Notes: generated by a model not told the origin, from the sequence alone. Counted from the stretch's first letter, positions 12,694 through 64,000 are shown. The stretch is DNA of 64,000 bases from a virus (IMGVR_UViG_3300018012_000099), one strand, 5' to 3'. Program-made: numbers and translations.

Positions 12694-12908
12694 TGCCAAC
12701 CTATCTTTATGAATGCCCGATTCACGGAGAATTTGAATATCAACATTCGATTAACGAAGAGCTAGAATACTGCCCACATTGTGAAGAAAAGGGAGAGTTA
12801 GACACTGGAGAGCGACATACCTTTCAAAAGGTCAAGAGACTTATTGCTGGTGGCACAAATTTTATTTTGACCGGTTCCGGCTGGGCCAAGGATAGTTATT
12901 CAAAATGA
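12693..12908 (+). CDS. FmdB-family zinc-ribbon protein
   Basis: MPTYLYECPIHG..CPHC..FILTGSGWAKDSY. Confidence 0.8.
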   Translation: MPTYLYECPIHGEFEYQHSINEELEYCPHCEEKGELDTGERHTFQKVKRLIAGGTNFILTGSGWAKDSYSK

Positions 12909-13615
12909 AAATTTGTAGGATATGTGGTGAAGGGAAATCAGAAATTGATTTCCCTTTCAGAGATAAAAAGAAGGGAATTCGTCGTACCGAGTGTAGCACT
13001 TGTATATCATTGTATAATAAACAATACAGAAAAGAAAATGAAAATTACATAACGCAACGAAGAAAAAAATTTTATGAGGATAACAAAGACCGATTATTAG
13101 ATGAAGCAAAAAGGTATCAACAAAATAACAAAAAAAGTATTTCACAGTCTAAAAAAGACTATTATTCCGCCAATAAAGAAAAATCAAGGATTTATCAACA
13201 ACAAAATCGTAAGCGTTTGAATGATTATATGGTGATACGACGAAAAAATGATCCACTCGTCAGGCTACGAGAAAATGTTTCAGCTTCAGTGTATAGATTA
13301 ATTAAGAGTGTTGGATATTCTAAATCTGAAAAATCAGTAATTAATTTTCTTCCTTATTCGTTTCAAGAATTAAAAGAACATATAGAAAAACAATTCGAAC
13401 CCTGGATGACCTGGGAGAATTATGGTAGATACGATATAAACATTTGGGATGATAACGATCCAACCACCTGGACTTGGCAGATTGATCATATCATCCCTCA
13501 AACTCAATTACCCTATGTTTCTATGAAGGATGATAATTTTCAGAAATGTTGGGCACTCCCTAATCTTCGTCCATATTCTGCTAAAATGAATATTAAGGAT
13601 GGAAATAGACGATAA
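12905..13615 (+). CDS. HNH-type homing endonuclease (CWALxNLRP group)
   Basis: CRIC..CSTC, WQIDHIIPQ..CWALPNLRP. Confidence 0.8.
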   Translation: MKICRICGEGKSEIDFPFRDKKKGIRRTECSTCISLYNKQYRKENENYITQRRKKFYEDNKDRLLDEAKRYQQNNKKSISQSKKDYYSANKEKSRIYQQQNRKRLNDYMVIRRKNDPLVRLRENVSASVYRLIKSVGYSKSEKSVINFLPYSFQELKEHIEKQFEPWMTWENYGRYDINIWDDNDPTTWTWQIDHIIPQTQLPYVSMKDDNFQKCWALPNLRPYSAKMNIKDGNRR

Positions 13616-24753: not shown

Positions 24754-25575
24754 ATGACAAACGAAATACCTGAGCAAATATGGTCGTTGTATCGAATTAT
24801 AAACAAAATCAACGGAAAAATCTATATCGGTCAAGCTGCCGAAGTATCCAAGCGCTGGTATGATCATCGCAGAGCAGTTAAACTAAATAAACCAACTCAA
24901 ATCGTTCACCGTGCCATGATAAAATATGGTTTAGATAACTTTGAATTCGAAGTTATAGCGTCCTGTAAAACTCAAGAGGATGCTAATGAGACCGAAACAG
25001 AATTAGTTAGACAATACGATAGTTTTGTTAAAAATGGCAAAGGATATAATGCTACCTTTGGCGGTATGAATGCCCCAAAAACCGAAGAGTGGAAACAAAT
25101 AATGCGAGATATTAAGGCAGATCCAATTTTCAAAAATAAAATGTCAACACTTTTAAAACAGTCTTGGAACGAAAGTCCAGAAAGAAAACAACAACTGTCA
25201 GAGCACAATAAAAATCTATGGCAAGACACAGAATACAGAAAAAATATGTTGTCCATCACTGAAAAAACTCAATTCAAAAGAGGCAGAATTGTTCCTGAAG
25301 AAATAAAAGAAGCTATTTCAAAAGCTAATTCAGGTAAAGTTGCATGGAATAAGAATATTAAAGGAATAATGAAACCAAACAAAACCTCTTTTAAGGTGGG
25401 TCAAAATATAGGGGAAAATAACGTAAACAGCAAGTTGAATTGGTCAATTGTGTCTAGTATTAGAAAAGATAGAAATGATGGTTTATCTTACAAACAACTC
25501 GCTGATAAATATCAGATAAGTAAATCTGTCATCGCTCAAGTTGTTACGTTTAGAACTTGGAAAGTTAAAAGCTAA
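24754..25575 (+). CDS. GIY-YIG homing endonuclease (free-standing)
   Basis: SLYRIINKINGKIYIGQA, GYNATFGG, C-terminal HTH. Confidence 0.9.
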   Translation: MTNEIPEQIWSLYRIINKINGKIYIGQAAEVSKRWYDHRRAVKLNKPTQIVHRAMIKYGLDNFEFEVIASCKTQEDANETETELVRQYDSFVKNGKGYNATFGGMNAPKTEEWKQIMRDIKADPIFKNKMSTLLKQSWNESPERKQQLSEHNKNLWQDTEYRKNMLSITEKTQFKRGRIVPEEIKEAISKANSGKVAWNKNIKGIMKPNKTSFKVGQNIGENNVNSKLNWSIVSSIRKDRNDGLSYKQLADKYQISKSVIAQVVTFRTWKVKS

Positions 25576-36024: not shown

Positions 36025-36746
36025 TGAAGATTTGTACGAAATGTGGTCTTGAAAAAGATGATAGTGATTTTCCTCTTAGAAATAAAGATAAGAGGACCCG
36101 CCGTAATGAATGTAGACAGTGTACCAAAAAATATAGAGAAAATTATTACGAACAAAATAAGCAAGTTCTGTTGGAAGGCGCCAAACAATATTACGCTGAC
36201 AACAGGGATAAAATTATAAAAGATGTTAAAAATTATCGTGAAGAAAATAAAGACGCTATCGGTGAATACAAAAAAGAATATTATCAAGAAAATAAAGATC
36301 GAATAAAAGAATACCAAATTGTTAACAAAGATAAAATACAAAAATCTGCAAATGAACAAAGAAAAGAACGCAGAAAGAACGATCCCTCATTTAAAATGAG
36401 AACATATGTATCTAATTCTATCCGTGATGTTTTAAAAGGTAGAAAAAATAGTGGTACCTGGAAAAATCTTCACTATACCCCACAACAATTAAAAGAACAT
36501 CTCGAACGACAGTTTGAACCATGGATGACCTGGCAAAATCACGGTAAATTTGATCCGACAACTTGGAATGATAATGATTCGAGGACTTGGACTTGGCAAA
36601 TTGACCATATCATTCCTCAATCGGATCTTCCATATACATCAATGGAAGACGATAATTTTAAGAAATGCTGGGCATTAGAAAATCTCAGACCGCTATCTGC
36701 TAAACAAAATGTGGTAGAAGGTGCTGATAGGATAAGGCACAAATGA
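36024..36746 (+). CDS. HNH-type homing endonuclease (CWALxNLRP group)
   Basis: CTKC..CRQC, WQIDHIIPQS..CWALENLRP. Confidence 0.8.
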   Translation: MKICTKCGLEKDDSDFPLRNKDKRTRRNECRQCTKKYRENYYEQNKQVLLEGAKQYYADNRDKIIKDVKNYREENKDAIGEYKKEYYQENKDRIKEYQIVNKDKIQKSANEQRKERRKNDPSFKMRTYVSNSIRDVLKGRKNSGTWKNLHYTPQQLKEHLERQFEPWMTWQNHGKFDPTTWNDNDSRTWTWQIDHIIPQSDLPYTSMEDDNFKKCWALENLRPLSAKQNVVEGADRIRHK

Positions 36747-37098
36747 TTTCAATTACAGATATGCACGGAACTATTCATAACTCTTGCCCCAGATGTGGCG
36801 GGAATTGGAGAAGAACTGTTGATGGTTATAGTTGTATAAATAATGAAAATTCCTTCGAAGCAAAAAACATTGTATGGCTGCATTAACTGGTGTTGATCTT
36901 CCTATGAATCATTATATGTTGATTTCACTTCTGAAATGTGATGAAAATTTCTATATGATCTCATGGGAAGCTGAAAAGTGTGTGGTAGTTAAGCGCAAAA
37001 ATGGAATATGGGACACTGAGGGGCAAGTAGAATTACCGCTAATAATTCCATTTACGATGGATTGTAAAAAGCTCAAGACGTATATCCTGTTTTCCTAA
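36743..37098 (+). CDS. Zn-ribbon/C-terminal-motif family member split by a -1 frameshift at A_AAA_AAC (36862-36868)
   Basis: Frame 0 (36743-36886) encodes CPRC; the -1 frame ends KLKTYILFS; fusion gives about 118 aa, like other members. Confidence 0.65.
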
Positions 37099-43066: not shown

Positions 43067-43284
43067 GCACTTTTGTGTCTGTAGACAATACGTCCCTTGG
43101 AAGTATCATATTCACTTACTTCAACAGTCACTTTGTCACCAACTAAAATTTTTACCGAGTTCATTCTTATTTTGCCACTTAAAGTAGCTCGGACGGTCAT
43201 GGTTTCATTTATTTTAACCGTAAATTGTCCTTTGTTAGCTTCGAGGACGATTCCGTCCAGTTCGATCCTGTCTCTCTCAACCAT
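43063..43284 (-). CDS. infA: Translation initiation factor IF-1
   Basis: IELDGIVLEA..LSGKIRMNSVKILVGDKVTVEVSEYD..GRIVYR. Confidence 0.92.
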   Translation of the reverse strand: MVERDRIELDGIVLEANKGQFTVKINETMTVRATLSGKIRMNSVKILVGDKVTVEVSEYDTSKGRIVYRHKSA

Positions 43285-43925
43285 TATACTTTTCTCCTGT
43301 ATGTTTTATTTCTTAGTATTTTCCAAATTACATTTCTTCTTACATTAAATTTTAGCGCCAGCTCACTCATAGAAATGCCGCCAGCGTTCCATTCCGATCT
43401 AATATTTTCAGCCTGATCGTTGGTAAATTTGGCACGTGGATTATTTTCTCCAAGATAAATATTTTGTTTCTTCTTACTCATAATTTGTTTAGTTTCGTCG
43501 GAAAAGTGTTTTCCAAAGTTAGCGTTCAATGCACCACTTCTCTGGGCACTCATTTTTGCCTTTACTTCTGGAGAGTGTGTTTTTCCAAACATTGGATTGA
43601 GTGCGCCTGATTTGGCGCCACGCCCGCCGGCATTTACGTTGTAACCAGCTTCCTTTCCAAATTTACTGACGTCAGTACGAAAAAATTCAATCCAAAACTC
43701 TTCGGCATTATAAGAATCTTGTTCATTTTCCCATTCTTCTATGACTGAGAATATAAAATTATCGATACCATATTTTTTGATAGCGGCATGAATTAGGCTA
43801 TATTCACGAGGTTTAGCACCATTAGCTATGCCTCTGTGCTCGGCATATCTACGAATCGGATTAGATGTTTTACCAACGTAAATTTTATTGTTCAGTTTAT
43901 TTTGTATGACATATATGTGGAACAT
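43284..43925 (-). CDS. GIY-YIG homing endonuclease
   Basis: HIYVIQN..KIYVGKT, GYNVNAGG, NUMOD3 NPMFGKTHS. Confidence 0.9.
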   Translation of the reverse strand: MFHIYVIQNKLNNKIYVGKTSNPIRRYAEHRGIANGAKPREYSLIHAAIKKYGIDNFIFSVIEEWENEQDSYNAEEFWIEFFRTDVSKFGKEAGYNVNAGGRGAKSGALNPMFGKTHSPEVKAKMSAQRSGALNANFGKHFSDETKQIMSKKKQNIYLGENNPRAKFTNDQAENIRSEWNAGGISMSELALKFNVRRNVIWKILRNKTYRRKV

Positions 43926-46060: not shown

Positions 46061-46546
46061 TCATCTTTTTTGAAAAACAGGGAATGTGATAAACAAAGGT
46101 ATCATTCCCTTTTTCTTGTATTCTTCTTGCAGTGGTGGATCCAAGTATTGGTATCCGCTGATAATTTTACGACACTTGTTGGATCCACAAGTGCAATCCA
46201 TCTTCCACATCTCGTAGGTATCAGTGGCACTGGTAGAATAATCAAAGGTTAACTCTGTCCCAGCTGGTATTACATATAATGAGTGTAGAATGGCTCTATT
46301 GCCCACTATATGAAAATAGCAATTAGGATCGCAACTGTGGTTGAGAAACCTTAGATTACCAGAAATATTTAAATAGTCGTTGGGACCAATCTGTAAGACA
46401 CTAGAATCTTTAGGGTCCAATAGCTCTTGCAGAGTGCAGATATTACCATGTGGCTCATCGATGGGGGTACCGGCTGGAATTTCGATAGTAGTAAAAACGC
46501 CATCTCCAAATTTGCTTTTAGCTACTTTTAGATATTGAGTAAACAT
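46061..46546 (-). CDS. SET-domain protein-lysine methyltransferase with post-SET
   Basis: GDGVF, FLNHSCDPN, ELTFDY, CTCGSNKCR. Confidence 0.9.
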   Translation of the reverse strand: MFTQYLKVAKSKFGDGVFTTIEIPAGTPIDEPHGNICTLQELLDPKDSSVLQIGPNDYLNISGNLRFLNHSCDPNCYFHIVGNRAILHSLYVIPAGTELTFDYSTSATDTYEMWKMDCTCGSNKCRKIISGYQYLDPPLQEEYKKKGMIPLFITFPVFQKR

Positions 46547-51392: not shown

Positions 51393-52214
51393 ATGAAAAT
51401 TGTCTCATCAATTCTAACCGTTTTATTTGCAGGAATAATTAGCGCCACATCATCCGCCCAATCTACAGAAAATGAAAGTGATGCTGGGGTGGCACAGAAT
51501 TTGCAGCGCATCAACGCCTGTCCCAGTGACATGGTGGAGATAGAGGGCGACTATTGTCCCGACGTGGAGCAAAAGTGTCTCTATAACGTGGACATGAGCG
51601 GTAAGCGCGAGAATAAACCAGCCGACCCCACCTGGGCTTGCGGGGAATTTCAAGCCCCCACCCTGTGTAAATCAGACAAAAAAGTGCATATGCATTTTTG
51701 TATGGATAAATACGAATGGCCCAATAAAGAAGGTCAAATCCCCCAAGACTGGATGTCTTTTTTCGATGTGAAAAGAGCATGTGAAAGTGTCGGAAAGAGA
51801 ATGTGTTTTTCGCACGAATGGACGCTGGCGGCCGAAGGACCAAATATGCACCCATTACCATATGGAGATGGATTCCATCGTGATAATAATATATGTAATT
51901 TTGATCGTCACATACCTGGTGGTATTGATGTTTTTAAAGCTAAAAAACCAGATGATGAAACGGCAAAAAAACTTCGCAGTTTACTTGTACCCTCTGGTTC
52001 CAAATCAGAGTGTCATAGCGACTATGGAGTTTATGATATGGCAGGAAATGTAGACGAATTTGTTATTAATGAAAGTGGTAGTCCTTATGTATCAGGTCTA
52101 AAGGGAGGACATATTTGGCATGTACGAAATGCTTCGCGCCCAATGACAACTGCTCACGGACCAACCTTTAGTTGGTACGAGACTTCGGGGCGTTGTTGTG
52201 CTAACAACAAATAA
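51393..52214 (+). CDS. Secreted FGE-sulfatase (SUMF1/CLec-fold) protein
   Basis: Signal peptide; CPSDMVEI, FCMDKYE, RMCFSHEW, GVYDMAGNVDE, GRCC. Confidence 0.85.
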   Translation: MKIVSSILTVLFAGIISATSSAQSTENESDAGVAQNLQRINACPSDMVEIEGDYCPDVEQKCLYNVDMSGKRENKPADPTWACGEFQAPTLCKSDKKVHMHFCMDKYEWPNKEGQIPQDWMSFFDVKRACESVGKRMCFSHEWTLAAEGPNMHPLPYGDGFHRDNNICNFDRHIPGGIDVFKAKKPDDETAKKLRSLLVPSGSKSECHSDYGVYDMAGNVDEFVINESGSPYVSGLKGGHIWHVRNASRPMTTAHGPTFSWYETSGRCCANNK

Positions 52215-52654
52215 TCCGCTCCCGCTTTCATTAGCTCTGGATTATCGTTAAAATGACCGATTCCTTTATTGCATTGCTGACATAATATGCCTCTTACTAT
52301 ATTAGTTTTGTGACAATGATCTATACAAGCTCGAGTAACGCTTGTACCGCTAAGAGTTAATTTTATTTTGCATATTTTACAGGCACCATTTTGTGAGCTT
52401 AAGATATTATCAAACTCTCGTTGTGTTATACCGTAAATGCGAAATCTATTTGCCGTGATAATTTTTTCAGCATTCTGTTGCTTATACTGTTTTTTCTTGT
52501 CTTTGATTTTCGCAGCGTAATTTTTACGATAATATTTTTTGGAATATTCGGAAACACAAGACCGACATCGTTTGTTTAGACCATCCGAGTTATACTTATC
52601 CTTGCTGAATGGACCAGCTGAACCGCATTTTACGCATCTTTTTTCGTGTATCAT
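52154..52654 (-). CDS. Endonuclease VII-family homing endonuclease
   Basis: YGIT..QNGACKIC..IDHCHKTNIVRGILCQQCNKGIG; convergent 61-nt overlap with the FGE gene. Confidence 0.88.
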   Translation of the reverse strand: MIHEKRCVKCGSAGPFSKDKYNSDGLNKRCRSCVSEYSKKYYRKNYAAKIKDKKKQYKQQNAEKIITANRFRIYGITQREFDNILSSQNGACKICKIKLTLSGTSVTRACIDHCHKTNIVRGILCQQCNKGIGHFNDNPELMKAGADYLLLAQQRPEVSYQLKVGP

Positions 52655-52701
52655 ACCGTTTATATATCCGTGATTACTAGCTTTTTAATTTTAGGAATTG
52701 A

Positions 52702-53358
52702 ATGAATCTGGGAGATTTTTTTTCTTACAAAACTTTTTGCCCTTTGTGCGATGCTAGAATGAAAATTAATTTTCACTCCAGTCGTAAACAATTTATTGAA
52801 ATTGATAACGATTGTCTGTTTGTTAGTTTCGACTTGCTACCACTTAAACCCACTGTAGATAAAACCTACAAAGTAAAATATTGTTTCAAACTAGAACAAC
52901 CCGAGTTTCATGTAGAATTTTATACCAAAGGGGGAACTCATTTTGAGAATATTATTTCTTGTGATCTGATTTCGCGTTGTGTAGCTTTACACAACAGTTT
53001 AAGGATATTTGAATTTTACAAAACATGTTCTAGGTGCGTTAGATATGCATATTATTCGAAAAAATTTAATCTAATTTTGGGGCGGCAGGTGCAACCTATA
53101 ATATTTGATTACGAAATTTATTGTTTACAACACACTTTGAATAACGAACACACTAATATTAGATCCTATCAGTTGATTAATAATATGTCTACCGGTAGAA
53201 CACTACTAGGTTTTTGGAAAGAAGATGGATTGTCTGAGTCTTTTAATTACGCTCATCAACGTAATGTGCGTGGTACTTATATAAATCTTCCGTTGATTCC
53301 TTTTGTCTCTAAAGAAGAAACCACTAAGAGGCTTAATAATTTGATTATCTTCACCTAA
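52702..53358 (+). CDS. Zn-ribbon/C-terminal-motif family, long class
   Basis: CPLC..CSRC; ends RLNNLIIFT. Confidence 0.75.
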   Translation: MNLGDFFSYKTFCPLCDARMKINFHSSRKQFIEIDNDCLFVSFDLLPLKPTVDKTYKVKYCFKLEQPEFHVEFYTKGGTHFENIISCDLISRCVALHNSLRIFEFYKTCSRCVRYAYYSKKFNLILGRQVQPIIFDYEIYCLQHTLNNEHTNIRSYQLINNMSTGRTLLGFWKEDGLSESFNYAHQRNVRGTYINLPLIPFVSKEETTKRLNNLIIFT

Positions 53359-53371
53359 TAAGTTTGTATTT
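53356..53371 (+). promoter_or_regulatory. Putative late-promoter motif, ATG 4 nt after it
   Basis: TAATA-agttt-GTATTT-tacc-ATG. Confidence 0.4.
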
Positions 53372-53375
53372 TACC

Positions 53376-54050
53376 ATGCACCCCAATAAGTTGTTAAGAT
53401 TCGCTAATATGTTCCATTCTTTGGCTACTTCGGAGGAATTGCCCGCCGATTCCAAGGAACTTAAGACAGTTTTATCTAACTTAGCAAAACTTGAAACCTA
53501 TAATGCTCGTAAGCAGTATGCGGAGAAAAACCTCACGCACTTGAGTTCCGGTTCTTCGCGCATCGTCTACTTGACACCGGGTAAGACCATCGTTAAAGTA
53601 GCTAAAAACGATAAGGGCATCGCTCAGAACAAAGCCGAAGCTAACCCCGAGATGAAATCTAAATTTCTTAATGAGATTCTGGGACATGCCACTAATTATG
53701 CTTGGATAGAAACCTGTTATTTGGATAAGATTACCACCAAGCAGTTTGAAGAAATGACTGGCATCCCGTTTTCTGATTTTGATGAGGCAATTCGTTTTGG
53801 ATTGAAAAACGTGTCGGATAATAAAGATTTAACTAAACCTAAGAATTTTGATAGAGTATCAGATTCAGAAGTATACAAAGAGATGAAAAGAGTTGGGGAA
53901 CGTTTCAAGCTGATGCCGGGCGATATCGCCAGAATTTCCTCTTGGGGAACCAAAGATGATCGCCCGATTTTGATTGATGCTGGTTTAACTGCCCAAGTGT
54001 TTGCTGATTTTTATGAAGATGATTCTTCCAACAGTAGTAGTACGACCTGA
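53376..54050 (+). CDS. Protein-kinase-like fold protein
   Basis: SSGSSRIVY, VKVAK, QNKAE, GDIARISSWG, IDAG; N-terminal LLRFANMFHSLA. Confidence 0.6.
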   Translation: MHPNKLLRFANMFHSLATSEELPADSKELKTVLSNLAKLETYNARKQYAEKNLTHLSSGSSRIVYLTPGKTIVKVAKNDKGIAQNKAEANPEMKSKFLNEILGHATNYAWIETCYLDKITTKQFEEMTGIPFSDFDEAIRFGLKNVSDNKDLTKPKNFDRVSDSEVYKEMKRVGERFKLMPGDIARISSWGTKDDRPILIDAGLTAQVFADFYEDDSSNSSSTT

Positions 54051-54706
54051 TGTTTGATAAATTTCGTTGCATTCAAGAAGCGTTCGATCATATTCCCAGA
54101 TGCTTATTGTGTAATTACGGTATGGCAACTTTGGACAATTTAGATACCTCACCAACTTACGGTGCCGGGTTGTCATTTGAATATGATAGGTATGCTGAAG
54201 ACCATGGTTATTCTACCATTACTTATACTCTGAGAGGGGCAGGGTATGCAGATATTTTTCGAATCAATACACAAACTAACCATGTTGAAAGAGAAATTAA
54301 TATTGAAAATGATAACCAAACAGTAACCTCAAGTCTTGGTTATACCAGTGCGGGATCGCCACCGCCACTTTCGGGACATCGGTATTTGTCATTGACAGCT
54401 AAATGTAGGGCGTGCCAGAAATATGATTATACGCTGCAGCTTATTGTTGCTTTACAACCTGTAGCTATGAAAGAAATTATTCTCAACTCGGAGAGGGTAA
54501 TTTTCCAGGCTGACCGTATGAGCGAGGCATGGGAATTGAAAAATATCTACACTACCAAGCTGACGGTATATTCTCGTTTTTCTCCACCCGTGATTGGCGC
54601 CAACGCTGTCCGCCAGATTACACAACAATTTCCTCTTCTCCCACTAGACCGAAATGATCCCACCAAAACTCTGAAACGTGTCAAAAATCTATTGATCTTC
54701 ACTTAA
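54050..54706 (+). CDS. Zn-ribbon/C-terminal-motif family, long class
   Basis: CLLC..CRAC; ends RVKNLLIFT. Confidence 0.75.
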   Translation: MFDKFRCIQEAFDHIPRCLLCNYGMATLDNLDTSPTYGAGLSFEYDRYAEDHGYSTITYTLRGAGYADIFRINTQTNHVEREINIENDNQTVTSSLGYTSAGSPPPLSGHRYLSLTAKCRACQKYDYTLQLIVALQPVAMKEIILNSERVIFQADRMSEAWELKNIYTTKLTVYSRFSPPVIGANAVRQITQQFPLLPLDRNDPTKTLKRVKNLLIFT

Positions 54707-54709
54707 GAT

Positions 54710-55339
54710 ATGTCAAATTTTTATTCAAATATTGCAGATTTTCTGGATTGCAGAAAGGTTTGTTTTTTCTGTGGCGAACCTTTGTGTTATCGCGTAACAC
54801 AGTTTCTGGGTTCTTTTAACGAATTGCCTGTGGTCAGCGCCCCAATTAAAGATGATACGGTAGATTTTTCTTTTCAACATACTACTGCTATATTTGACTT
54901 ACAAGTTAAAGCCAGGATAAACGTGAATACCAATGTCTTGACTTTTTCTGTCCCCGAGAATAGTGATACGCCTAGTATTGACAACATGTTAGCTAAAAAT
55001 GTTTTCTTATCCCTATTTCCTCATGTGCAGCTATATTGTAAGTGTAAGTATAGTTACACGGTAGTGAGTGAGGCTTTCCAGGTAGTTGAACCAGAGTCTA
55101 AAAAATATGTGACTGAACTAGAGTCTACAGAATATGTGATCAAACCACTCGAGTTATTTTATGAGAGTTTTGTGATGGGTAGCTTATGGATACAAAATGA
55201 TTACATATGGGAAAAAACTAACATTTATACACGTGATAATGAAGGTGCACTTCCTATTACCTATCCTCTTTTGGATTGGAATGCTATGGGGCAGAAAAAG
55301 TTGCTAACTAGAATTAAAACCCTAGTTGTTTGGAGTTAA
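54710..55339 (+). CDS. Zn-ribbon/C-terminal-motif family, long class
   Basis: CFFC..CKC; ends RIKTLVVWS. Confidence 0.75.
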   Translation: MSNFYSNIADFLDCRKVCFFCGEPLCYRVTQFLGSFNELPVVSAPIKDDTVDFSFQHTTAIFDLQVKARINVNTNVLTFSVPENSDTPSIDNMLAKNVFLSLFPHVQLYCKCKYSYTVVSEAFQVVEPESKKYVTELESTEYVIKPLELFYESFVMGSLWIQNDYIWEKTNIYTRDNEGALPITYPLLDWNAMGQKKLLTRIKTLVVWS

Positions 55340-55374
55340 AACAGCATCTCGGTTTGTCGGATTAGTGAGAACTT

Positions 55375-56463
55375 ATGGATACACTGCAAACACTACAAGC
55401 CTGCCAGGAAAAACTGGTTGTCCTGGAAGGGATGATACCCCTTATCCAGTATCAAAAGCGTTTGTCAGAAATTGATGAACAGCTTAACGGTCCTGGTCTG
55501 TGGTCTGATCCTCGTGGGGCTGCTGCTATCATGAGAGAGCGCAGTAAGTTATCTGAACTGATCAAGATCATGACTCAGTTCAGAGATCAGATACAGTTTT
55601 ATACTGAACTGGCGGAGATAGATGTTGCCGAAATAGAGAAGGAAGGCACTACTCTCTTTATATTACATTCTCAATTATCCGATTTAGAGTTTAAGCAGAT
55701 GATGAAGGATCCGATAGATGATAGTGCTGCCATCCTTAGTATCAGTGCGGGAGCAGGCGGTTTAGAAGCTGCTAACTGGGTGAGTATGTTGCTACGCATG
55801 TATGTTCGTTATGCCGACGCTCGTGGCTACAAGACAGAAATATTGGATGAAAAACGTTCGGAAGAACATAGTTCTATTTGTATTGATTCGGTGTCTATTC
55901 GTATGGAAGGTCCTTACGCTTATGGTTTCCTTAAAGGCGAATCGGGCGTGCATCGCTTGATTCGCAACTCACCTTTCAATGCAGGTGATGCTCGACAAAC
56001 TTCTTTTGCGGCAGTCGCAGTCACTCCTGATATTGAGGATACTATTGATATTAGGGTAGAAGAAAAAGATATTGAATTTACGGCTCAGACCGCTGGTGGT
56101 CCGGGTGGTCAGAATCAAAATAAAGTGGCTAGCGCTGTCAGACTCAAACATTTTCCTACCGGTATAGCTATCTTCGTGCGCACGGAGCGTGATCAGCATG
56201 CCAACCGTCGTACCGCTATGAAAATGTTAAAGGCTAAATTATACGAAATTGAAATGAAAAAGAAACAGGCTGAAAAAGAGAAACTGGTTTCTTCCTTTTC
56301 TGATGTCTCTTTCGGCTCGCAGATCCGCACGGTAACACTCACTCCGTATTTTTTAGTAAAAGATCATAGAACCAGGTACGAAAGCCATGACGCTAACGCC
56401 ATATTAGATGGTGATATTCAAGAATTTATATTAGCATATTTGAGGCGGAATGCGAGCGAATGA
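55375..56463 (+). CDS. prfB: Peptide chain release factor 2, uninterrupted ORF
   Basis: [26 protein letters not shown] (SPF), [16 protein letters not shown]. Confidence 0.93.
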
Positions 56464-57173
56464 TGTTTTGCGTTTACAAAATAAAAAATTTAGTCAATGG
56501 CAAATTGTATATCGGTAAAACGTGTAATCCTGACGAAAGGTGGCACGATCACTTAACGGCTGCCAAATATAAAAAAGATTCGTGTCCTATCCACAGAGCT
56601 ATTAATAAATATGGTGAGGATAATTTTGAATTTTCTATCATTGAAGAGTATGAATCGGACGAAAAAGCTTTGAGCGGGGAAGTATTTTGGATAGCTGAGC
56701 ATAAAACCAATATTTCTAAATACGGAAACCAATTTGGTTACAATCTCACAGATGGTGGTGAAGGCGTGGCAGGACTTATTCATACAGAGGAGTCTAAAAG
56801 AAAAATGTCTGAAGCTGTAATGGGCGAAAAAAATCACAATTATGGAAAACCTAAAAGTGACGAGATTAAAAGGAAAATTTCCGATTCCAACAAAGGACAA
56901 AAGCGCACACCAGAAACTAAAGCAAAAATATCAGCAGTCCAACTTGGTAAAGAAATTTCGGAAAATACCAAGAGTAAAATGTCTGCTGCACATACTGGCA
57001 AACATGTAGGAGAAAATAATAACAGCGCTAAATTAACTGAAAATGATGTCAGAGAAATTAAAATATTGTTGTCGGGCGGAGTCAGTACCTGGGATATAGC
57101 TCTAAAATATAATGTCAAAGAAAGGGCTATCAGGAATATACGAGCCGGACGAAGTTGGAGCCATATTAAATAA
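56460..57173 (+). CDS. GIY-YIG homing endonuclease
   Basis: [29 protein letters not shown]3 repeats. Confidence 0.9.
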
Positions 57174-57778
57174 TGGAACACAAAAAATTCTTTGTCAAGG
57201 ATTTTATCCATTACTGTAGTCCATGTTTCGTGTGCGGTTATACTATGACCTTCAAATTTGGATTTAACGGAAACGGTCAAGATGCCCTATTTCCCGATTG
57301 CACTTGGGCTAATACAGCTATGACTATCGTGACTGATAAATATACAGAAGTAGATTTAAGCATCCGATATCGTGCTAATCTCAAAATATATATTTACCAC
57401 CGTAACAACAAATTAGTTACTTCAGATAACGTTAGCTTCTCAGACTATCTCGCTAAAAGAAAATTATTTCTCATTTGTTACTGTGTTGGCTGTGATTCTA
57501 GTATTTCTAGTAGAAATTTAGATTTTCAAACATTTAATGGTGTGGTCAGTCCCACCACCATTCGTTATGAAAATTTTCTTATCTCTCATAAAAACCGACG
57601 CTACCAATTAAGATCAGATTTCGATAAGCAAAAATCTATTGGTACGGTGCGTACCTACACCGCCCCCAATGTTTCGGGACCAGATTTGGTTTTTGAGATG
57701 AAACTACTACCCAAGTATAAGCTGGGAAACAAACAAAAATTGATCGATAAATTGAACACCTACGCACTTTTTTCATAA
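57173..57778 (+). CDS. Zn-ribbon/C-terminal-motif family, long class
   Basis: CFVC..CVGC; ends KLNTYALFS. Confidence 0.75.
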   Translation: MEHKKFFVKDFIHYCSPCFVCGYTMTFKFGFNGNGQDALFPDCTWANTAMTIVTDKYTEVDLSIRYRANLKIYIYHRNNKLVTSDNVSFSDYLAKRKLFLICYCVGCDSSISSRNLDFQTFNGVVSPTTIRYENFLISHKNRRYQLRSDFDKQKSIGTVRTYTAPNVSGPDLVFEMKLLPKYKLGNKQKLIDKLNTYALFS

Positions 57779-57790
57779 CCTGGATTTAAA

Positions 57791-58438
57791 ATGAACTTTC
57801 AAGAATTACTTGATTATCGTAAAATCTGTCTCATTCATGATTTGCCTATGGAAAGCTTAGTGTATACCGCAGACCTTCCTAAGGGTGGTAGGACTAAGAT
57901 GAGTATCAAGACTTTGCCGGCAGGCGTCTTTCTACATTTGAGAGGTCAGGCACCCGACCAGGGAGCTGTCTTTCTGCATGATGGCACTTATCTCATCGAT
58001 GATAGCCAAAAGGCTTTGAGGAAGATATTGGACAATACGGTTCACATTTTACGCCGATGTTCAGAATGCGCGAAAAGTAAAAATATTCCAGTCGAAATTG
58101 AAACGACTGCCACCACCATAAGTATGGTGCGAGAATCAATTCATTTCTATAATTTTTACTTATTTCCAGTAATTGACACTGAAGTAAGTCAGACATACAT
58201 GATGGGTCCAGGTAGAGAAAATATTAGATACCTACGTAATGATAAATTTTATCACATGTCAGCTAGGATAGGAGGCGGCGAAGCGACTTTCAGATTGGGA
58301 CGTTGCGCCGGCACTGATCTGCTAGAGCAACTATTGGATAGTTTGATGAACCTCAAAGTGCCTCAGTTTGATCCTATTAGAATTCAGAGCGTCGATGCTT
58401 TAGTCGAAAAAATTAAAATATATAACTTATTCAGCTGA
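57791..58438 (+). CDS. Zn-ribbon/C-terminal-motif family, long class
   Basis: CLIH..CSEC; ends KIKIYNLFS. Confidence 0.75.
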   Translation: MNFQELLDYRKICLIHDLPMESLVYTADLPKGGRTKMSIKTLPAGVFLHLRGQAPDQGAVFLHDGTYLIDDSQKALRKILDNTVHILRRCSECAKSKNIPVEIETTATTISMVRESIHFYNFYLFPVIDTEVSQTYMMGPGRENIRYLRNDKFYHMSARIGGGEATFRLGRCAGTDLLEQLLDSLMNLKVPQFDPIRIQSVDALVEKIKIYNLFS

Positions 58439-58473
58439 TGTGAATAATCTGATATATAGTATACGGAGGTTCT

Positions 58474-59328
58474 ATGGAACACAAAATATACTATTTGTAT
58501 AAAATCATTAACATGCTCGACAATAAAGTTTATATTGGACAGACAGTACGTCCCAAGGAACGTTGGTCACAGCACCGAGCCTATGCAAAATTAGAAAAAC
58601 CAATTCAATACATACACCGAGCCATGGCTAGGCACGGAATTGATAATTTTTCTTATGACGTGATTGCGTCTTCCTGGACACAAAACGGTGCCGATGAAGC
58701 TGAAAAATTATTGATTGCACAATATGATAGTCGCAATTCGGAAAAGGGATATAATATTGCTCCCGGAGGCGATCCTGCCTGGAATAGAGGTCTTCCCAAA
58801 GAACGGCAACCCATGTATGGTAAGAAACAATCGGAGTTTCAAAAACAAAGGTGTGCTGAAATTCATACCGGACTAACTTTTAATCATACTGAAGAAACAA
58901 AATTGAAAATGTCTAAAACACGAACCGGTATGGTTAAAAACGATGAGTGGAAGAAAAAGATAGGAGAAGCCCACAAGGGTAAAAAGTACACTGACGAAAC
59001 TAGACAAAAAATGTCTGCAGCGCATATAGGTAAAGAAGTTAGCCCAGAAACCAGAGAAAAAATGTCCGCGGCACACACCGGTAAACCTAAAAAACCTTTT
59101 ACTAAAGAGCACAGATTGAATTTATCACTTGCTAATTTAGGAAAATCTTTAACAGAAGAGCACAAGAACAAAATTGCTAACACATTAACTGGCAAACTAC
59201 GTGTGAAATTAACTGCGGAGCAGATATTAGAAATACAGCAAAGCGTCTTGAGTAGCAGAAAACTTGCTAATGTATATGGTGTCAGTGCTAATACCATTAG
59301 AAATATAAAAAATCGTAAGGTTAAATAA
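58474..59328 (+). CDS. GIY-YIG homing endonuclease inside the array
   Basis: YLYKIIN..KVYIGQT, GYNIAPGG, several KMS.A(H)xGK NUMOD3 repeats. Confidence 0.9.
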   Translation: MEHKIYYLYKIINMLDNKVYIGQTVRPKERWSQHRAYAKLEKPIQYIHRAMARHGIDNFSYDVIASSWTQNGADEAEKLLIAQYDSRNSEKGYNIAPGGDPAWNRGLPKERQPMYGKKQSEFQKQRCAEIHTGLTFNHTEETKLKMSKTRTGMVKNDEWKKKIGEAHKGKKYTDETRQKMSAAHIGKEVSPETREKMSAAHTGKPKKPFTKEHRLNLSLANLGKSLTEEHKNKIANTLTGKLRVKLTAEQILEIQQSVLSSRKLANVYGVSANTIRNIKNRKVK

Positions 59329-59348
59329 TCAAATTTACTTTTTAGCTA

Positions 59349-59729
59349 ATGAACATGGAAATACCTATTAATTGTCCTATCTGTAATCATCCGTTGCAAA
59401 ATACCTTCAACGCCGCCACAAATGACGTAGTCTATAAAAATTGTCGTCTCCGTCCAGATCACATTTTTAGTTGTGCCGTCTTCTTAAACAACTTTAATGG
59501 ACCCGGAACCGGAGATGTAGTGGATAGGGTGGCTTTTACATTGTCCATGTCGCCACTGCTCTCTGTGGAAATTCATCCTGAAGGTAAGTTTATGAGTGTT
59601 GATAGATCGGCGTCGGACAATAGAGCACTTCTAAATGATCCTGAAGAAGTGCCATTTTACGTGGAGCCCGACTTCTCCGATTATCCTAAATTATGTAACA
59701 AGATTAAGATTTATCTACTTTTTAGTTAA
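59349..59729 (+). CDS. Zn-ribbon/C-terminal-motif family, short class
   Basis: CPIC..C..H; ends KIKIYLLFS. Confidence 0.8.
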   Translation: MNMEIPINCPICNHPLQNTFNAATNDVVYKNCRLRPDHIFSCAVFLNNFNGPGTGDVVDRVAFTLSMSPLLSVEIHPEGKFMSVDRSASDNRALLNDPEEVPFYVEPDFSDYPKLCNKIKIYLLFS

Positions 59730-59730
59730 A

Positions 59731-60099
59731 ATGAACGTACCTATTAATTGTCCCATCTGTGGTGACCCACTGACTAATACATTCAACCAATACAACAGCG
59801 TAATTATGTACAAAAATTGTCGTCTCCGCGCAGATCATATTTTCAGTTGCATGGTGGATTTAAATCATCCTGTGTTCAAAAAGGACATATTGTCAAGAGT
59901 AGCGTTCACCCTGTCGATGTCGCCTTTACTATCTGTCGGGCTGTTCCTAAACAATAAGTATATGAGTATTGGAAAATCAGCGCCAGATGAACTAGCAGCC
60001 ATAGTAGACCCCCAAAGACTGCCGTTTTATTTTGAGCCTGACTTTTCCGATTATCCTAAACTGTGTAACAAGATTAAAATTTACCTTTTGTTCTCCTAA
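59731..60099 (+). CDS. Zn-ribbon/C-terminal-motif family, short class
   Basis: True start MNVPINCPIC; ends KIKIYLLFS. Confidence 0.8.
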   Translation: MNVPINCPICGDPLTNTFNQYNSVIMYKNCRLRADHIFSCMVDLNHPVFKKDILSRVAFTLSMSPLLSVGLFLNNKYMSIGKSAPDELAAIVDPQRLPFYFEPDFSDYPKLCNKIKIYLLFS

Positions 60100-60160
60100 A
60101 AAGAAAATCGGCTCAAACTCCGCAGAATTCAAGCCGATAAGAAATGACTGTTAACTTTAT

Positions 60161-60340
60161 TTAACGCTTCAATAGGGTGGATAGCTTCTTCATTCTATTC
60201 TTGGCAGAAGTACGACGCTCCAGCTGTTGAGTAGTATATTCTTCAATAGTTTCAGCATCTTGAGCCATACCCTCTTCAAGTTGGTCAGCTAGCTCGTTTG
60301 CCATTTTTTCGAATTGATCAATTTTCTCAAACAAGTCCAT
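60161..60340 (-). CDS. Small helical protein (59 aa, MDLFEKIDQFEKMA...) antisense to the array
   Basis: Translated by hand; open frame of 60 codons; upstream TAATA-tcaac-GCATAT (60379-60394, minus strand). Confidence 0.65.
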   Translation of the reverse strand: MDLFEKIDQFEKMANELADQLEEGMAQDAETIEEYTTQQLERRTSAKNRMKKLSTLLKR

Positions 60341-60424
60341 GGGTCACCCATTCTCTGCGTAGGTAAAAGAACTAAAAGATATGCGTTGATATTACTACAT
60401 TTTCCAGACGTTATATATTTCTGT

Positions 60425-60787
60425 ATGGACGACTCCCTAACTTGTCCCATGTGTGGCAACAAGCTGACCAACCTTCGCCTTAATGATCGATATCTGGCTA
60501 TGCTGGATAAAAAGTCTAACTACATCGATAGAAACTGTTCTAGCGGCATTAGTCACAGTTTTAACCATATCGTCGATGAAATGACCGGCAAGGTAGATTG
60601 GATCAAGCTTTCCTACGAACCCGGCAAGAGGTGGATAGAAATTAACTATGTTACTCATAAGTCTCGTATTGTGTGTTTGAAAGATGGAGTGCCGGAGTAC
60701 ATCGATATCGATAAACGGTTGGAGCCGGACTTTCCCGCCTTGACGAGACTTCGAGAAAAAATCAGCATTTTCGTGCTGTTCTCATGA
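60425..60787 (+). CDS. Zn-ribbon/C-terminal-motif family, short class
   Basis: MDDSLTCPMC..C...H; EPDF; ends KISIFVLFS. Confidence 0.78.
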   Translation: MDDSLTCPMCGNKLTNLRLNDRYLAMLDKKSNYIDRNCSSGISHSFNHIVDEMTGKVDWIKLSYEPGKRWIEINYVTHKSRIVCLKDGVPEYIDIDKRLEPDFPALTRLREKISIFVLFS

Positions 60788-61101
60788 ACTGTCCTTTCTG
60801 TCACCAAGAGTTGGCGCCCCGGGAGGGTAACCAAAGATGCGATAAATGGGAATGTTGGTATCATACTATGCCTCGCTATATTCGTTACCATAATAGTTTA
60901 GGGATGCTAATAGTAGAGAAGATTGTTCTCACCGATACGATTTATGTGGTTATTGACCACGTTGAAAATACCACTACCATTTCCAAATTAGATGTAGTAG
61001 TAATTAGCGATCATGTCAAGCTGTCCCGCGCCCTCAAGCTGGATTTGGAAAAATATCAAGCGGTGGTTGACAAGATAAAAACCCTGCTTATTTTAAGTTA
61101 A
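60784..61101 (+). CDS. Zn-ribbon/C-terminal-motif family, short class
   Basis: CPFC..CDKWEC; ends KIKTLLILS. Confidence 0.78.
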   Translation: MNCPFCHQELAPREGNQRCDKWECWYHTMPRYIRYHNSLGMLIVEKIVLTDTIYVVIDHVENTTTISKLDVVVISDHVKLSRALKLDLEKYQAVVDKIKTLLILS

Positions 61102-61102
61102 T

Positions 61103-61480
61103 ATGGAAACACCGGCACGCCAAGTTATTTGTCGATTTTGTCAGCACCCAACTCCTCATTCTCCGCTGGAAGAAATGGATAGAATGGGAGTGGATGTATA
61201 TTGGTGCGAAACCTGTCACGCCGAGTATTTATATTTTAAGGATTCCAATTACTGTAATAGTTGCTCTTTGTATACTCAGTTAAACGATAAGCATTATCGC
61301 TGGACTACTTCCGCCACCGGCTATGCTTTTCTGTGGTATATTAGAGAGCTGGGTATTCCTGGCAAACTGGTCAATAGAGACATGAACGTTTTATTCAGTT
61401 TGAGTGCGGGAGATAACCAACCAGACATCACGCCCGACAATGTGGCTCGGAAGATTAAAACTATGTTAATATTTCTATGA
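61103..61480 (+). CDS. Zn-ribbon/C-terminal-motif family, short class
   Basis: CRFC..CETC; ends KIKTMLIFL. Confidence 0.78.
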   Translation: METPARQVICRFCQHPTPHSPLEEMDRMGVDVYWCETCHAEYLYFKDSNYCNSCSLYTQLNDKHYRWTTSATGYAFLWYIRELGIPGKLVNRDMNVLFSLSAGDNQPDITPDNVARKIKTMLIFL

Positions 61481-61833
61481 TCCCTCGACCTAAAAGTTTT
61501 AATATCAAAAACTGTCCCATCTGCAATTGTCTACTTAACGTGCAGTATGTAAATGGACACACAGTATTGTATAAATGTCCTACTACCTACACTAGCATGG
61601 TGGCGAACCTACCACATTACGTCATTCAGGTAATGGATGGGAAGATTGAGCAACGTTCTATTATTCCGCCCTATACACTCACTAGTGAGGTAGGTTCGGG
61701 TAGAACCTCTATCTACAATACCGAACATAAAGGTGAAGGTAATGGTTTTATTATGAACGTTCCCACCATATTACCTACCAACGACCCGGAAAAACTAGCT
61801 CAACGTATCAAGACCTTGATCCTGTTCTCTTAA
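61477..61833 (+). CDS. Zn-ribbon/C-terminal-motif family, short class
   Basis: CPIC..CP..H; ends RIKTLILFS. Confidence 0.78.
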   Translation: MIPRPKSFNIKNCPICNCLLNVQYVNGHTVLYKCPTTYTSMVANLPHYVIQVMDGKIEQRSIIPPYTLTSEVGSGRTSIYNTEHKGEGNGFIMNVPTILPTNDPEKLAQRIKTLILFS

Positions 61834-61853
61834 TCATATCTGGGCATTATATT

Positions 61854-62201
61854 ATGCAATGCCCCTTTTGTCAGCAAGAAATGAAATCAATCGATAATGG
61901 TCAAGCACCCAGATTGGTAATGATTTGGATTTGTAAGTCTTGCATAAATGAAGTTCGTGTAATAGCAGAGAAAAATGTAGATACAGAAGTGTGGACGACT
62001 AATCATATGGCTATCTTCGTTGAGCATCGTGAGATAGAATATTGTTTGCACTGGGATTATGTTAACAAATGGTTTGATATCAGAGATACCGCCAAGTCCA
62101 GTGGACAGGATAGTTATATTTTTCGAACCACCGTCATGCCCAGCAAAATTACTCCCGATAATGCATTAGAAAAGTTAAAAACCTATTTGGTATTCTTATG
62201 A
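61854..62201 (+). CDS. Zn-ribbon/C-terminal-motif family, short class
   Basis: CPFC..CKSC; ends KLKTYLVFL. Confidence 0.78.
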   Translation: MQCPFCQQEMKSIDNGQAPRLVMIWICKSCINEVRVIAEKNVDTEVWTTNHMAIFVEHREIEYCLHWDYVNKWFDIRDTAKSSGQDSYIFRTTVMPSKITPDNALEKLKTYLVFL

Positions 62202-62557
62202 AGAGTAAATGTTATTTTTGTCAGCAAGAGATGGAAATCAATAAATTGTCCGACGGCTTATGTCATGGCGTCTGCCCTGACTGTCCAGAAATAGCGCGCA
62301 CTATTTTTGATTTAGCACCCGACATGAAAACTTTAAGAGTGTGGTGCGCAATTATCTCGTTCAAAGATAACGATAAGGAGTATGAAGCTGTCTATTGCCC
62401 ACCGTCCGACTTTTACCTTAATGAGATTAAATATGCTGAGGCGGATAACTTCAATATAGCACCACGTGTTCGAGTGATGCAGCTAACTTTCTGTCCCAAA
62501 AACATCACGCCTCACAATATTAAGCAGAAGTTTCCCACCCTGAAAGTTTGGTCATGA
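62198..62557 (+). CDS. Zn-ribbon/C-terminal-motif family, short class
   Basis: CYFC..CPDC; ends KFPTLKVWS. Confidence 0.78.
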   Translation: MKSKCYFCQQEMEINKLSDGLCHGVCPDCPEIARTIFDLAPDMKTLRVWCAIISFKDNDKEYEAVYCPPSDFYLNEIKYAEADNFNIAPRVRVMQLTFCPKNITPHNIKQKFPTLKVWS

Positions 62558-62931
62558 AGCCACTAACCCACTGTCCATATTGTAAAGCTCCTTTGATCAA
62601 GAAAACTATTCCAGAAGAATTTAACCCCTTTAAGTATGAGAATTGTAACAAGCGTTGTACGGTAGATTATTTTCAATACTACACTCAATCTTATGATGAA
62701 CCGGAGTTGTATTACATTACCTTCTATACTCCCAAAGATCTATTCCACATCTATACTTACTTTAAACCTTCTTTCAGTATCAAAGCAGGCACCACTAACA
62801 TCTACTCTAATGCGATTACAGAGAAGCATGGTACCTCACTGCCCGTTTTTACTTTCCAAGACTTTAAATATGATTTAAATAATTTAGAAAAATTGGAAGA
62901 GAAACTCAACATTTGGATGCTATTCTCATGA
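62554..62931 (+). CDS. Zn-ribbon/C-terminal-motif family, short class
   Basis: CPYC..CNKRC; ends KLNIWMLFS. Confidence 0.78.
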   Translation: MKPLTHCPYCKAPLIKKTIPEEFNPFKYENCNKRCTVDYFQYYTQSYDEPELYYITFYTPKDLFHIYTYFKPSFSIKAGTTNIYSNAITEKHGTSLPVFTFQDFKYDLNNLEKLEEKLNIWMLFS

Positions 62932-63262
62932 AGTGCCCTATCTGTCATGGAGAGTTGGATCCAGTTTACGGCGATACCTATCCCGGAGATACTAGAAGAT
63001 TTAAGCAAAACGAACCTCTGCCTAAACCTATCGGTTATAACTGCCCCACTCAAACCGACTTGCCAGCCGGTGCCCAAACCCCTCACTACACTATAAGGGG
63101 ACTCAATGAAATAGTGACCATATTCCCCTATCGAGTTAGCACCTGGCATATCATCTCACCGCCCCACCAGATATTGATATCACCGTGACGCATATCAACT
63201 TTCCATTCTTCAATGAAATGAGAATGCGTCATAAACTCAAACTATATTTGCCTTTCCTATGA
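62928..63262 (+). pseudogene. Frameshifted Zn-ribbon/C-terminal-motif family member
   Basis: Frame 0 MKCPIC.. stops at 63188; the -1 frame (63140-63262) ends MRHKLKLYLPFL with a TGA overlapping the next ATG. Confidence 0.7.
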
Positions 63263-63615
63263 ATTGCTTCTTTTGTCAAAATGAATGCCGAAAGGAGAAC
63301 GATGAAGGACGGTGGTCCTGCAGTCATCATGCCGTTACAGTACATTTGAGGCGCTACGATTATCATGAAGGTGATGGTCTGCCAGATTTTCTATACTTCA
63401 CTCATGACCACAAGGATAAAGAATATACCGTCTGGTTTATTTTTCGCCCTTATGATTCGGGATCTTATAAAGAACCTAATTATGTTTCCTGTCATATCGA
63501 TTACTATCCCCACAATTTTAATGCAGATGGGCGCCTGATTCAGTTCGATTTCATTCCCAATTTAACCCCGGATAACTTCTTGCAAAAACTTCCTACCATT
63601 TTAGTCTTCCTATGA
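63259..63615 (+). CDS. Zn-ribbon/C-terminal-motif family, short class
   Basis: CFFC..CSHH; ends KLPTILVFL. Confidence 0.78.
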   Translation: MNCFFCQNECRKENDEGRWSCSHHAVTVHLRRYDYHEGDGLPDFLYFTHDHKDKEYTVWFIFRPYDSGSYKEPNYVSCHIDYYPHNFNADGRLIQFDFIPNLTPDNFLQKLPTILVFL

Positions 63616-64000
63616 ACTGCCCTTACTGCCAACAACCCTTTATAGATGCTTCATATTTAATAAAGAAAATTAATATTATTTATGGATCATCTTCAATAAA
63701 TGATTTACAAGACTATCAATTATTACAGTGCGATAATCATCAATCAGTAGTATTTAGAAAGTCCATTAATCTTGATACTAATTTGGAAGTCTATCGCTTA
63801 TTTATGGTATTCCACAAACAAATGTGGTATGGTATTATGATTGTTGGTAAATCAGATGCCTTTGAGATTAGAAAATATTCTCAAGATATCAATGATCCTA
63901 ACATATTCACTCAGCACGAATTTGTAGCTGGTTTTCCAACCTCCGCCTCTGCCATCACCGCCAACAATGTTCTATCTAAACTACAAACTATCCTAACCTT
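63612..64000 (+). CDS. Zn-ribbon/C-terminal-motif family, cut by the window end
   Basis: Translated by hand: MNCPYC..CDNH..ITANNVLSKLQTILT(F); no stop within the window. Confidence 0.75.
   Translation, partial: MNCPYCQQPFIDASYLIKKINIIYGSSSINDLQDYQLLQCDNHQSVVFRKSINLDTNLEVYRLFMVFHKQMWYGIMIVGKSDAFEIRKYSQDINDPNIFTQHEFVAGFPTSASAITANNVLSKLQTILT

Follow-up and report, generated by a model that had tools for sequence, protein, structure and literature searches.

A lineage-specific family of small, predicted zinc-binding proteins with constant ends and variable middles in a clade of uncultivated huge phages

In jumbo and huge phages several percent of the genes belong to expanded families of small proteins, and to our knowledge almost none of these families has a known role. 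The nearest described phenomenon to the one analyzed here is that of Bacillus phage G, a jumbo phage with tens of small zinc-ribbon proteins, in which a roughly 35-copy expansion has been reported and roles as transcription factors or in DNA binding have been suggested (Iyer et al. 2021, PMC7824862). We describe an array of genes located at positions 52702-64000 of a 64,000-nucleotide stretch of viral DNA (IMGVR_UViG_3300018012_000099), the whole of which we call the window. As judged from the sequences, the array is a lineage-specific expansion of one small family of predicted zinc-binding proteins in a clade of uncultivated huge phages.

The present family is of the same general kind as the phage G expansion and is a different family. 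A tblastn search of 50,697 phage records with a core member of the array revealed no sequence relationship to phage G, and neither this search nor a megablast of the region found a relative in any of the cultured phages among those records. The phage G protein gp32 carries its ribbon in the middle of the protein and has a helical C-terminus, without the KxKTYLxFS tail of the proteins described here, while gp166 of the same phage gave only a weak structural match in BFVD (TM 0.34-0.38). Compared with the phage G case, the new family has in addition a design of constant ends and a variable middle, two size classes and a fold for which we found no match.

An open reading frame (ORF) listing of positions 52000-64000 and a six-frame scan of the window for the tail identified 17 family genes on the + strand between 52702 and 64000, plus an outlying copy at 36743, just where a first-pass annotation of this DNA had placed them. 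The 17 genes have a common architecture, in which an N-terminal cysteine knuckle is combined with a tail of the form [KR]-[LIV]-x-x-x-x-x-[FW]-[STL] that ends at the stop codon. The strict tail pattern was present in 14 ORFs of the window and in none of any of 20 shuffled windows, and a match by chance is ruled out. The tails quoted in the first-pass annotation are correct; all have Lys or Arg at position -9 followed by a hydrophobic residue at -8, and Phe or Trp at -2 is missing only from the gene at 60784 (..LLILS). The two size classes that it had distinguished are also present: a long class of five genes encoding 201-218 amino acids (starting at 52702, 54050, 54710, 57173 and 57791), and a short class of 10 complete genes encoding 105-126 amino acids (starting from 59349 to 63259), to which comes a member cut by the window end that has 131 amino acids when completed. 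One correction applies to the N-terminal CxxC attributed to the members, the gene at 57791 having CxxH instead. Since a contig near-identical to the window (L014; 1 mismatch in 10,389 nucleotides) completes the cut gene and adds, past the window end, two further members (120 and 164 amino acids) that close the array, the phage carries about 20 copies.

The tail is selected as protein, because its synonymous codons vary freely. In an alignment of the last 20 codons of each gene, Phe at -2 is encoded by TTT or TTC, Ser at -1 by AGT, AGC, TCA, TCC or TCT (that is, by both AGY and TCN codons), and Lys or Arg at -9 by AAA, AAG, AGA, AGG or CGT. A DNA-level signal within the tail, such as a promoter or the ribosome-binding site of the next gene, was considered and rejected: the codons vary, and tails also precede long gaps and unrelated genes.

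The conserved element is larger than the terminal 9-mer initially proposed. It is a C-terminal block of about 25-33 residues comprising a strand, a Pro-Asp turn and an amphipathic helix. When positions were counted back from the C-terminus in 173 family sequences, conservation in the wider family was 95% for P-20, 83% for D-19, 85% for L-12, 95% for K-9, 88% for Y-5 and 94% for F-2. A hydrophobic stripe at -15, -12, -11, -8, -5, -4 and -2 has the heptad-like spacing of an amphipathic helix, and only positions -14 and -10 vary freely. The block does not behave as a portable tag either: 119 of the 124 tail-bearing ORFs (96%) also carry the N-terminal zinc knuckle, and the short class is one homologous family. 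The middles of the short class, previously regarded as unrelated, are homologous: hhalign matched the subgroup of the gene at 61854 to the family core along the whole length, with 104 columns that take in the middle (97.5%, E 5.6e-12).

Known docking and degradation tags are flexible peptides that follow a linker. The tail resembles such tags (ssrA, the SspB XB tail, the SSB tail, the clamp-binding QL[SD]LF motif and HbYX) in its hydrophobic or aromatic residue at -2 and its fixed distance to the free carboxylate, but differs from them in being predicted as helical, with a predicted local distance difference test score (pLDDT) of about 95, and in lacking the Gln-Leu-x-Leu-Phe consensus. In particular, the beta-clamp consensus QL[SD]LF / QLxLxL was not found in the tail, which reads K-[IL]-K-T-Y-[LI]-x-F-S and has no conserved Gln.

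The claim of a free, register-fixed tag on unrelated domains also disagrees with two independent AlphaFold2 models, both of which give an ordered terminal helix (pLDDT about 93-96). The model of the 59349 gene, made from a 148-sequence alignment, had a pLDDT of 95 and a predicted template modelling score (pTM) of 0.87. In this model short strands lie round a putative zinc site, a beta-meander is formed by strands 17-20, 27-32, 40-45, 57-67, 70-76 and 81-85, an ordered loop holds the F-x-E-P-D-F-S block, and the tail follows as helix 109-125 (block pLDDT 95-96). The second model, obtained independently from 18 sequences for the long gene L3 (at 54710), had a pLDDT of 87.8 and a pTM of 0.84, with the terminal helix at 195-208 (block pLDDT 93-96). 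From these models and alignments it is very likely that the genes make up one family, whose fold includes the tail as a helix. The first-pass annotation had itself named alignable middles and a tail packed in the core as the signs of an ordinary domain, and on predicted models this is mostly what we see.

The classes can be related in other ways. In BFVD the short model matched proteins of about 200 amino acids from the same uncultured phages with a TM score of 0.49-0.56 by query. About 90 residues separate the two zinc knuckles in the long class, compared to about 20 in the short one, so the 70-90 extra residues of the long class look like an insert between the knuckles. Mutual information with average product correction, computed for helix-to-sheet contacts on 262 sequences, was dominated by the subfamily signal.

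Several points weigh against the tail being simply a helix of one fold. The long L3 group aligns significantly with the short core over the last 33 columns only (92%, E 5e-7), and the burial of the helix is deduced from pLDDT and sequence periodicity in predicted structures. Polar residues of the tail are conserved as well (K-13 71%, K-9 95%, K-7 82%, T-6 79%), which exceeds a purely structural need and would fit a shared binding surface. Moreover, a helix with nothing but a structural role would not usually keep so strict a C-terminal register, with Phe at -2 in 94% of sequences.

Observations of this kind also speak for a hub adaptor, in which the zinc knuckle and the C-terminal helix would dock all paralogs on one phage or host machine and the variable sheet would pick the targets: the C-terminal 25-33 residues are the best-conserved part of the proteins, with K-13, K-9, K-7 and T-6 being of the exposed type, the terminus is fixed in register, and the C-terminal segment is the only one whose profiles match significantly when the two size classes are compared. 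We nevertheless consider this explanation unlikely, as in the models the tail is ordered and helical, belonging to the fold, and is not a flexible peptide, it was not found on other scaffolds (a family of look-alikes on the opposite strand, with a 149-residue representative, has no profile similarity to it), and genes for a protease, a clamp or an RNA polymerase were not seen within the window. Of the conserved genes outside the family, the kinase-like one in the array seemed the possible candidate for a hub encoded by the phage itself. If it were true, and we see this as a slim prospect, phages would possess, with 20-26 variable binders in each genome, their own equivalent of the F-box or PRANC-type repertoires, built on a fold without known relative.

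Divergent proteins sharing one short terminal element are familiar from other systems. The polymorphic internal proteins of phage T4 have a common capsid-targeting sequence, and there is a conceptual analogy between the present family and these proteins, the poxvirus ankyrin/PRANC proteins and the F-box and SOCS-box adaptors. In all those cases the elements are portable signals or separate domains on unrelated bodies, whereas in the present family the element is modelled as the final helix of a single fold and is coupled to the knuckle in 96% of the cases. By analogy with T4, the proteins might be packaged in the virion and injected, the constant C-terminal module being a capsid- or scaffold-targeting signal. 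The concept suits many divergent proteins with one short common terminal signal, and fast evolution would be typical of injected anti-restriction proteins, reasoning from T4 IPI. Yet the array lies among genes of replication, nucleotide metabolism and host-takeover type and not among head genes, the signal would be a folded C-terminal helix, and no adjacent protease cleavage motif was seen, so that we hold virion packaging to be highly improbable.

Structural searches with the models returned no informative relative. Foldseek against the PDB gave nothing at E<=0.001. The best hits of VIA-align wide had Z scores of 5.5 and 5.4 (LolB, p32-like, BLIP-like and TCP-type sheets), below its noise level of Z 7-8. 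All matches among the AlphaFold DB clusters had TM<0.5, and the ESM Atlas shape search found generic sheets only; the own model of the protein in that Atlas is poor (pLDDT 0.40). In BFVD, six uncharacterised proteins annotated as 'uncultured Caudovirales phage' match the model, and these belong to the family itself. At the least, the modelled fold has no recognisable relationship to any characterised protein.

Sequence searches gave the same picture. No model of Pfam, PHROGs v4 or NCBIfam scored above cut-off with the window members or with consensus-like relatives, no match was found among the PDB sequences (best E 0.15 in a profile search), and every source that we consulted for individual members says only 'hypothetical protein'. 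The family is thus undescribed in the databases and literature searched, as the first-pass annotation had supposed. A profile of the short members retrieved 30 relatives in a word-indexed search, and an exhaustive search of 1.84 billion representatives with such a profile yielded 622 clusters (50% identity) at E<=1e-3. Among the best 150 of these 622 clusters, nearly all proteins are of 104-133 amino acids, match the full profile and, again with few exceptions, do so up to the last residue. Related loci come from huge-phage contigs of 178-485 kb in IMG/VR and ENA, plus shorter viral contigs. A search of 185,579 cellular species genomes gave 1 match, which lies on a contig of 7 kb binned as Paceibacterota; because this contig carries the same phage array with its RF2 gene, a phage fragment placed in the wrong bin is the most likely source.

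The consensus of the family starts with M-K-x-P-I-N-C-P-x-C-x-D-P-L-L-N, continues with a second knuckle, K-x-C-x5-H, and a conserved Trp in the middle of the protein, and ends with L-P-[YFW]-F-E-P-D-[FL]-S-[ND]-Y-x-K-L-[ILV]-x-K-[IL]-K-T-Y-[LI]-x-F-S. The putative zinc ligands are invariant within each group: C9, C12, C32 and H38 in 148 short-member sequences, C3, C6, C27 and C30 in the 61854 subgroup, and C18, C21, C110 and C112 in the long L3 group. Two Cys/His knuckles that could form a zinc site, flanked by strands in the models, give these proteins the layout of a generic zinc ribbon, in which two such knuckles on beta-turns are spaced by about 15-30 residues or split by an insert. Their N-terminal CP[FI]C knuckle is also present in Lar, the restriction alleviation protein, and in other small phage zinc ribbons, and a Lar-like protein shows a 38-residue structural overlap in BFVD (rank 45); however, no Pfam zinc-ribbon family reaches its cut-off, and the sheet and terminal helix have no counterpart in those proteins.

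A zinc ribbon at the N-terminus raises the possibility that the paralogs are sequence-specific nucleic-acid-binding regulators, that is, transcription or translation factors of differing specificity. Such a role has been proposed for the phage G zinc ribbons (PMC7824862), the last 16 residues of the present proteins are basic (median isoelectric point (pI) 9.6), and an RF2 gene lies within the array. The whole proteins encoded in the window, however, span pI values of 5.0-9.3, a range that speaks against a single nucleic-acid ligand for all members, and their bodies are in many cases acidic. The searches made returned no DNA- or RNA-binding family or fold, and the phage G example, gp32, differs in architecture and tail. 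We therefore judge a regulatory role of this sort quite unlikely.

The array is syntenic across the clade, with about 20-26 copies per genome, and related phages have 18-24 ORFs with both the strict tail and the zinc knuckle per 20 kb. In tblastn comparisons of the window proteins with the related loci, the order of the genes was conserved: the FGE-like gene, L1, the kinase-like gene, L2, L3, RF2, L4, L5 and the short array. The relatives have, in addition, a 232-residue long variant ending in ..ILMS between L3 and RF2, and a gene of 149 amino acids on the opposite strand between L5 and the short array. This gene belongs to a family of 138-157 amino acids without zinc knuckle that lies between the long and short classes of the relatives (L002:7677-8126, L003:8963-9400, L005:9211-9627, L008:9191-9640 and L012:3860-4333, all on the - strand). 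Its tail, R-L-x-K-L-K-x-F-[LSV], is similar, yet a profile comparison gave no similarity to the zinc family. The opposite-strand family is absent from the window, where a GIY-YIG gene is found in its place.

Members of the array diverge faster than the genes embedded among them. Between phages, the kinase-like and RF2 proteins are 50-75% identical, compared to 20-45% for the family orthologs. The divergence is uneven along the proteins: when each was paired with its best counterpart from the relatives, identity averaged 41% for the first 22 amino acids, 28% for the middle and 49% for the last 25 amino acids (n=71 pairs). This bears out the earlier description of the array as a set of paralogs that have diversified in the middle while their two ends stayed constant. 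Where contigs have an identical member in common, its neighbours and the GIY-YIG endonucleases differ, which indicates that the array turns over at strain level. There are at least 5 GIY-YIG homing-endonuclease paralogs in the 64 kb of the window, two of them within the array and others at 4920-5492, 24754-25575 and 43284-43925 (-), and their positions differ between closely related contigs.

With moderate confidence we favour the idea that the products of the array are small binders, stabilised by zinc, that together form a repertoire: different members would recognise different host or defence proteins, each by means of its variable sheet. Each protein would be a single fold, in which the CPxC knuckle pairs with the second knuckle (Cx5H or CxxC) to hold zinc; a beta-meander would follow the knuckles, and then the module of about 30 residues, running from strand through Pro-Asp turn to an amphipathic helix that reaches the last residue. 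Zinc knuckle and terminal helix would be the constant scaffold, and the intervening beta-sheet the fast-evolving part. A compact operon, with a T7-like kinase and RF2 as neighbours, would produce all the copies jointly, probably at an early stage of infection. Each copy would have its own host or defence protein to bind, a shared hub being unnecessary. The setting is circumstantial evidence that fits an early host-takeover region: a coupled operon on one strand, a T7-kinase-like gene, RF2, endonuclease VII and several homing endonucleases, with nucleotide-metabolism and replication genes upstream of the array. The weaker side of this proposal is that expression timing and targets are deduced from the neighbouring genes only, for a family with no cultured relative.

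Seven of the gene junctions are ATGA overlaps, and the genes of the array are therefore translationally coupled. Coupling, together with an amphipathic helix that is conserved round most of its circumference, would also suit an oligomerisation interface, through which the paralogs might form homo- or hetero-oligomers as combinatorial assemblies. Against this stand a helix that lacks the length of a coiled coil and monomer models that are confident without a partner, and we regard the explanation as very unlikely. All four window genes with a terminal Leu sit in ATGA overlaps. Among the 17 family genes the stop codon is TAA in 9 and TGA in 8, with 0 TAG; reading TAG as Gln gave no better gene structure in the window, and a recoded TAG was discarded.

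The long class opens the array, all of its genes being on the + strand. L1 (52702..53358, 218 amino acids, tail RLNNLIIFT), whose orthologs in related phages occupy the same place in the array, is followed by a gene outside the family, at 53364..54050 (+), encoding a protein similar to protein kinases of the phage T7 type. This gene lies in the L1-L2 interval in all cases and is 59-75% identical across the clade. Its product has 224-228 amino acids, with a Gly-rich loop, a VKxAK lysine and GD..R / IDAGL motifs; it is placed by the Atlas near phage T7-kinase-like clusters and protein-kinase folds, matches phrog_4301 (function unknown) with E 8e-10, and has relatives at 28% identity in the Xanthomonas jumbo phages XacN1 and Xoo-sp13. 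L2 (54050..54706, 218 amino acids, tail RVKNLLIFT) and L3 (54710..55339, 209 amino acids, tail RIKTLVVWS; beta-rich in its model) come next, and then the second embedded gene, for an RF2-like release factor with PCRF and RF-1 domains (55375..56463, +), which is inside the array in every related phage locus at 50-75% identity. A GIY-YIG homing endonuclease gene (56460..57173, +) is inserted before L4 (57173..57778, 201 amino acids, tail KLNTYALFS) and L5 (57791..58438, 215 amino acids, tail KIKIYNLFS), and a second one (58474..59328, +) separates L5 from the short class.

The short class, also on the + strand, begins with the member nearest to the family core (59349..59729, 126 amino acids) and a recent duplicate of it (59731..60099, 122 amino acids, 64% identity), which has the same tail in other codons. 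Here the array is interrupted by an ORF outside the family, at 60161..60340 on the - strand, encoding an acidic helical protein of 59 amino acids; related contigs have a predicted gene of this length at the corresponding place. It is followed by a terminator-like hairpin with a 14-bp stem (60138-60107). The next members are those at 60425..60787 (120 amino acids, tail KISIFVLFS), 60784..61101 (105 amino acids, tail KIKTLLILS, the one with Leu at -2), 61103..61480 (125 amino acids, tail KIKTMLIFL), 61477..61833 (118 amino acids, tail RIKTLILFS), 61854..62201 (115 amino acids, tail KLKTYLVFL), 62198..62557 (119 amino acids, tail KFPTLKVWS) and 62554..62931 (125 amino acids from its ATG, tail KLNIWMLFS). 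After a frameshifted member come the gene at 63259..63615 (118 amino acids, tail KLPTILVFL) and the one cut by the window end (63612..64000), which is complete in L014 and ends there in ..TILTFL.

In the frameshifted member (62928..63262, +) the N-terminal CPxC part and the tail KLKLYLPFL are in different frames, as are the CxxC part and the tail ..KLKTYILFS of the outlying copy (36743..37098, +). The frameshift of the latter is located at an A6 run (36861-36866), and that of the former lies, by its sequence, probably at a C4 run near 63163 (about 63160-63170); a single-base change at the A6 run, and probably also at the C4 run, would restore the reading frame. The 62928 frameshift is also present in near-identical contigs from other samples. 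Recent loss of function as pseudogenes, errors of assembly or slippage sites could each account for the two copies.

On both sides the array is flanked by genes for proteins predicted to be exported. Upstream, at 51393-52214 (+), is an FGE-sulfatase-like protein with a signal peptide that is conserved in the relatives; downstream, in L014, are an M10-like metallopeptidase with an HExxH motif and a lipoprotein-like leader and a trypsin-like protease (L014:11254-11979 and 12003-12962, both on the - strand). Elsewhere in the window, a SET-domain protein is encoded at 46061-46546 (-) (Pfam SET, E 3.9e-13), near genes for a dUTPase, ThyX, a GMP reductase/IMPDH-like protein and two RNase T-like exonucleases. 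We found no tRNA genes in the window and no Rfam RNA family in 52000-64000, and the scans for promoters and terminators gave results at shuffle level.

The family is a large one, with its 622 clusters, and is confined to a single clade of huge phages. Since the tag is most likely a structural helix, attention shifts from peptide docking to the structure and folding of these proteins and to the partners specific to each paralog. Their confidently predicted fold and their layout of constant and variable parts make them amenable to study as a possible binder scaffold or counter-defence toolkit of phage origin.

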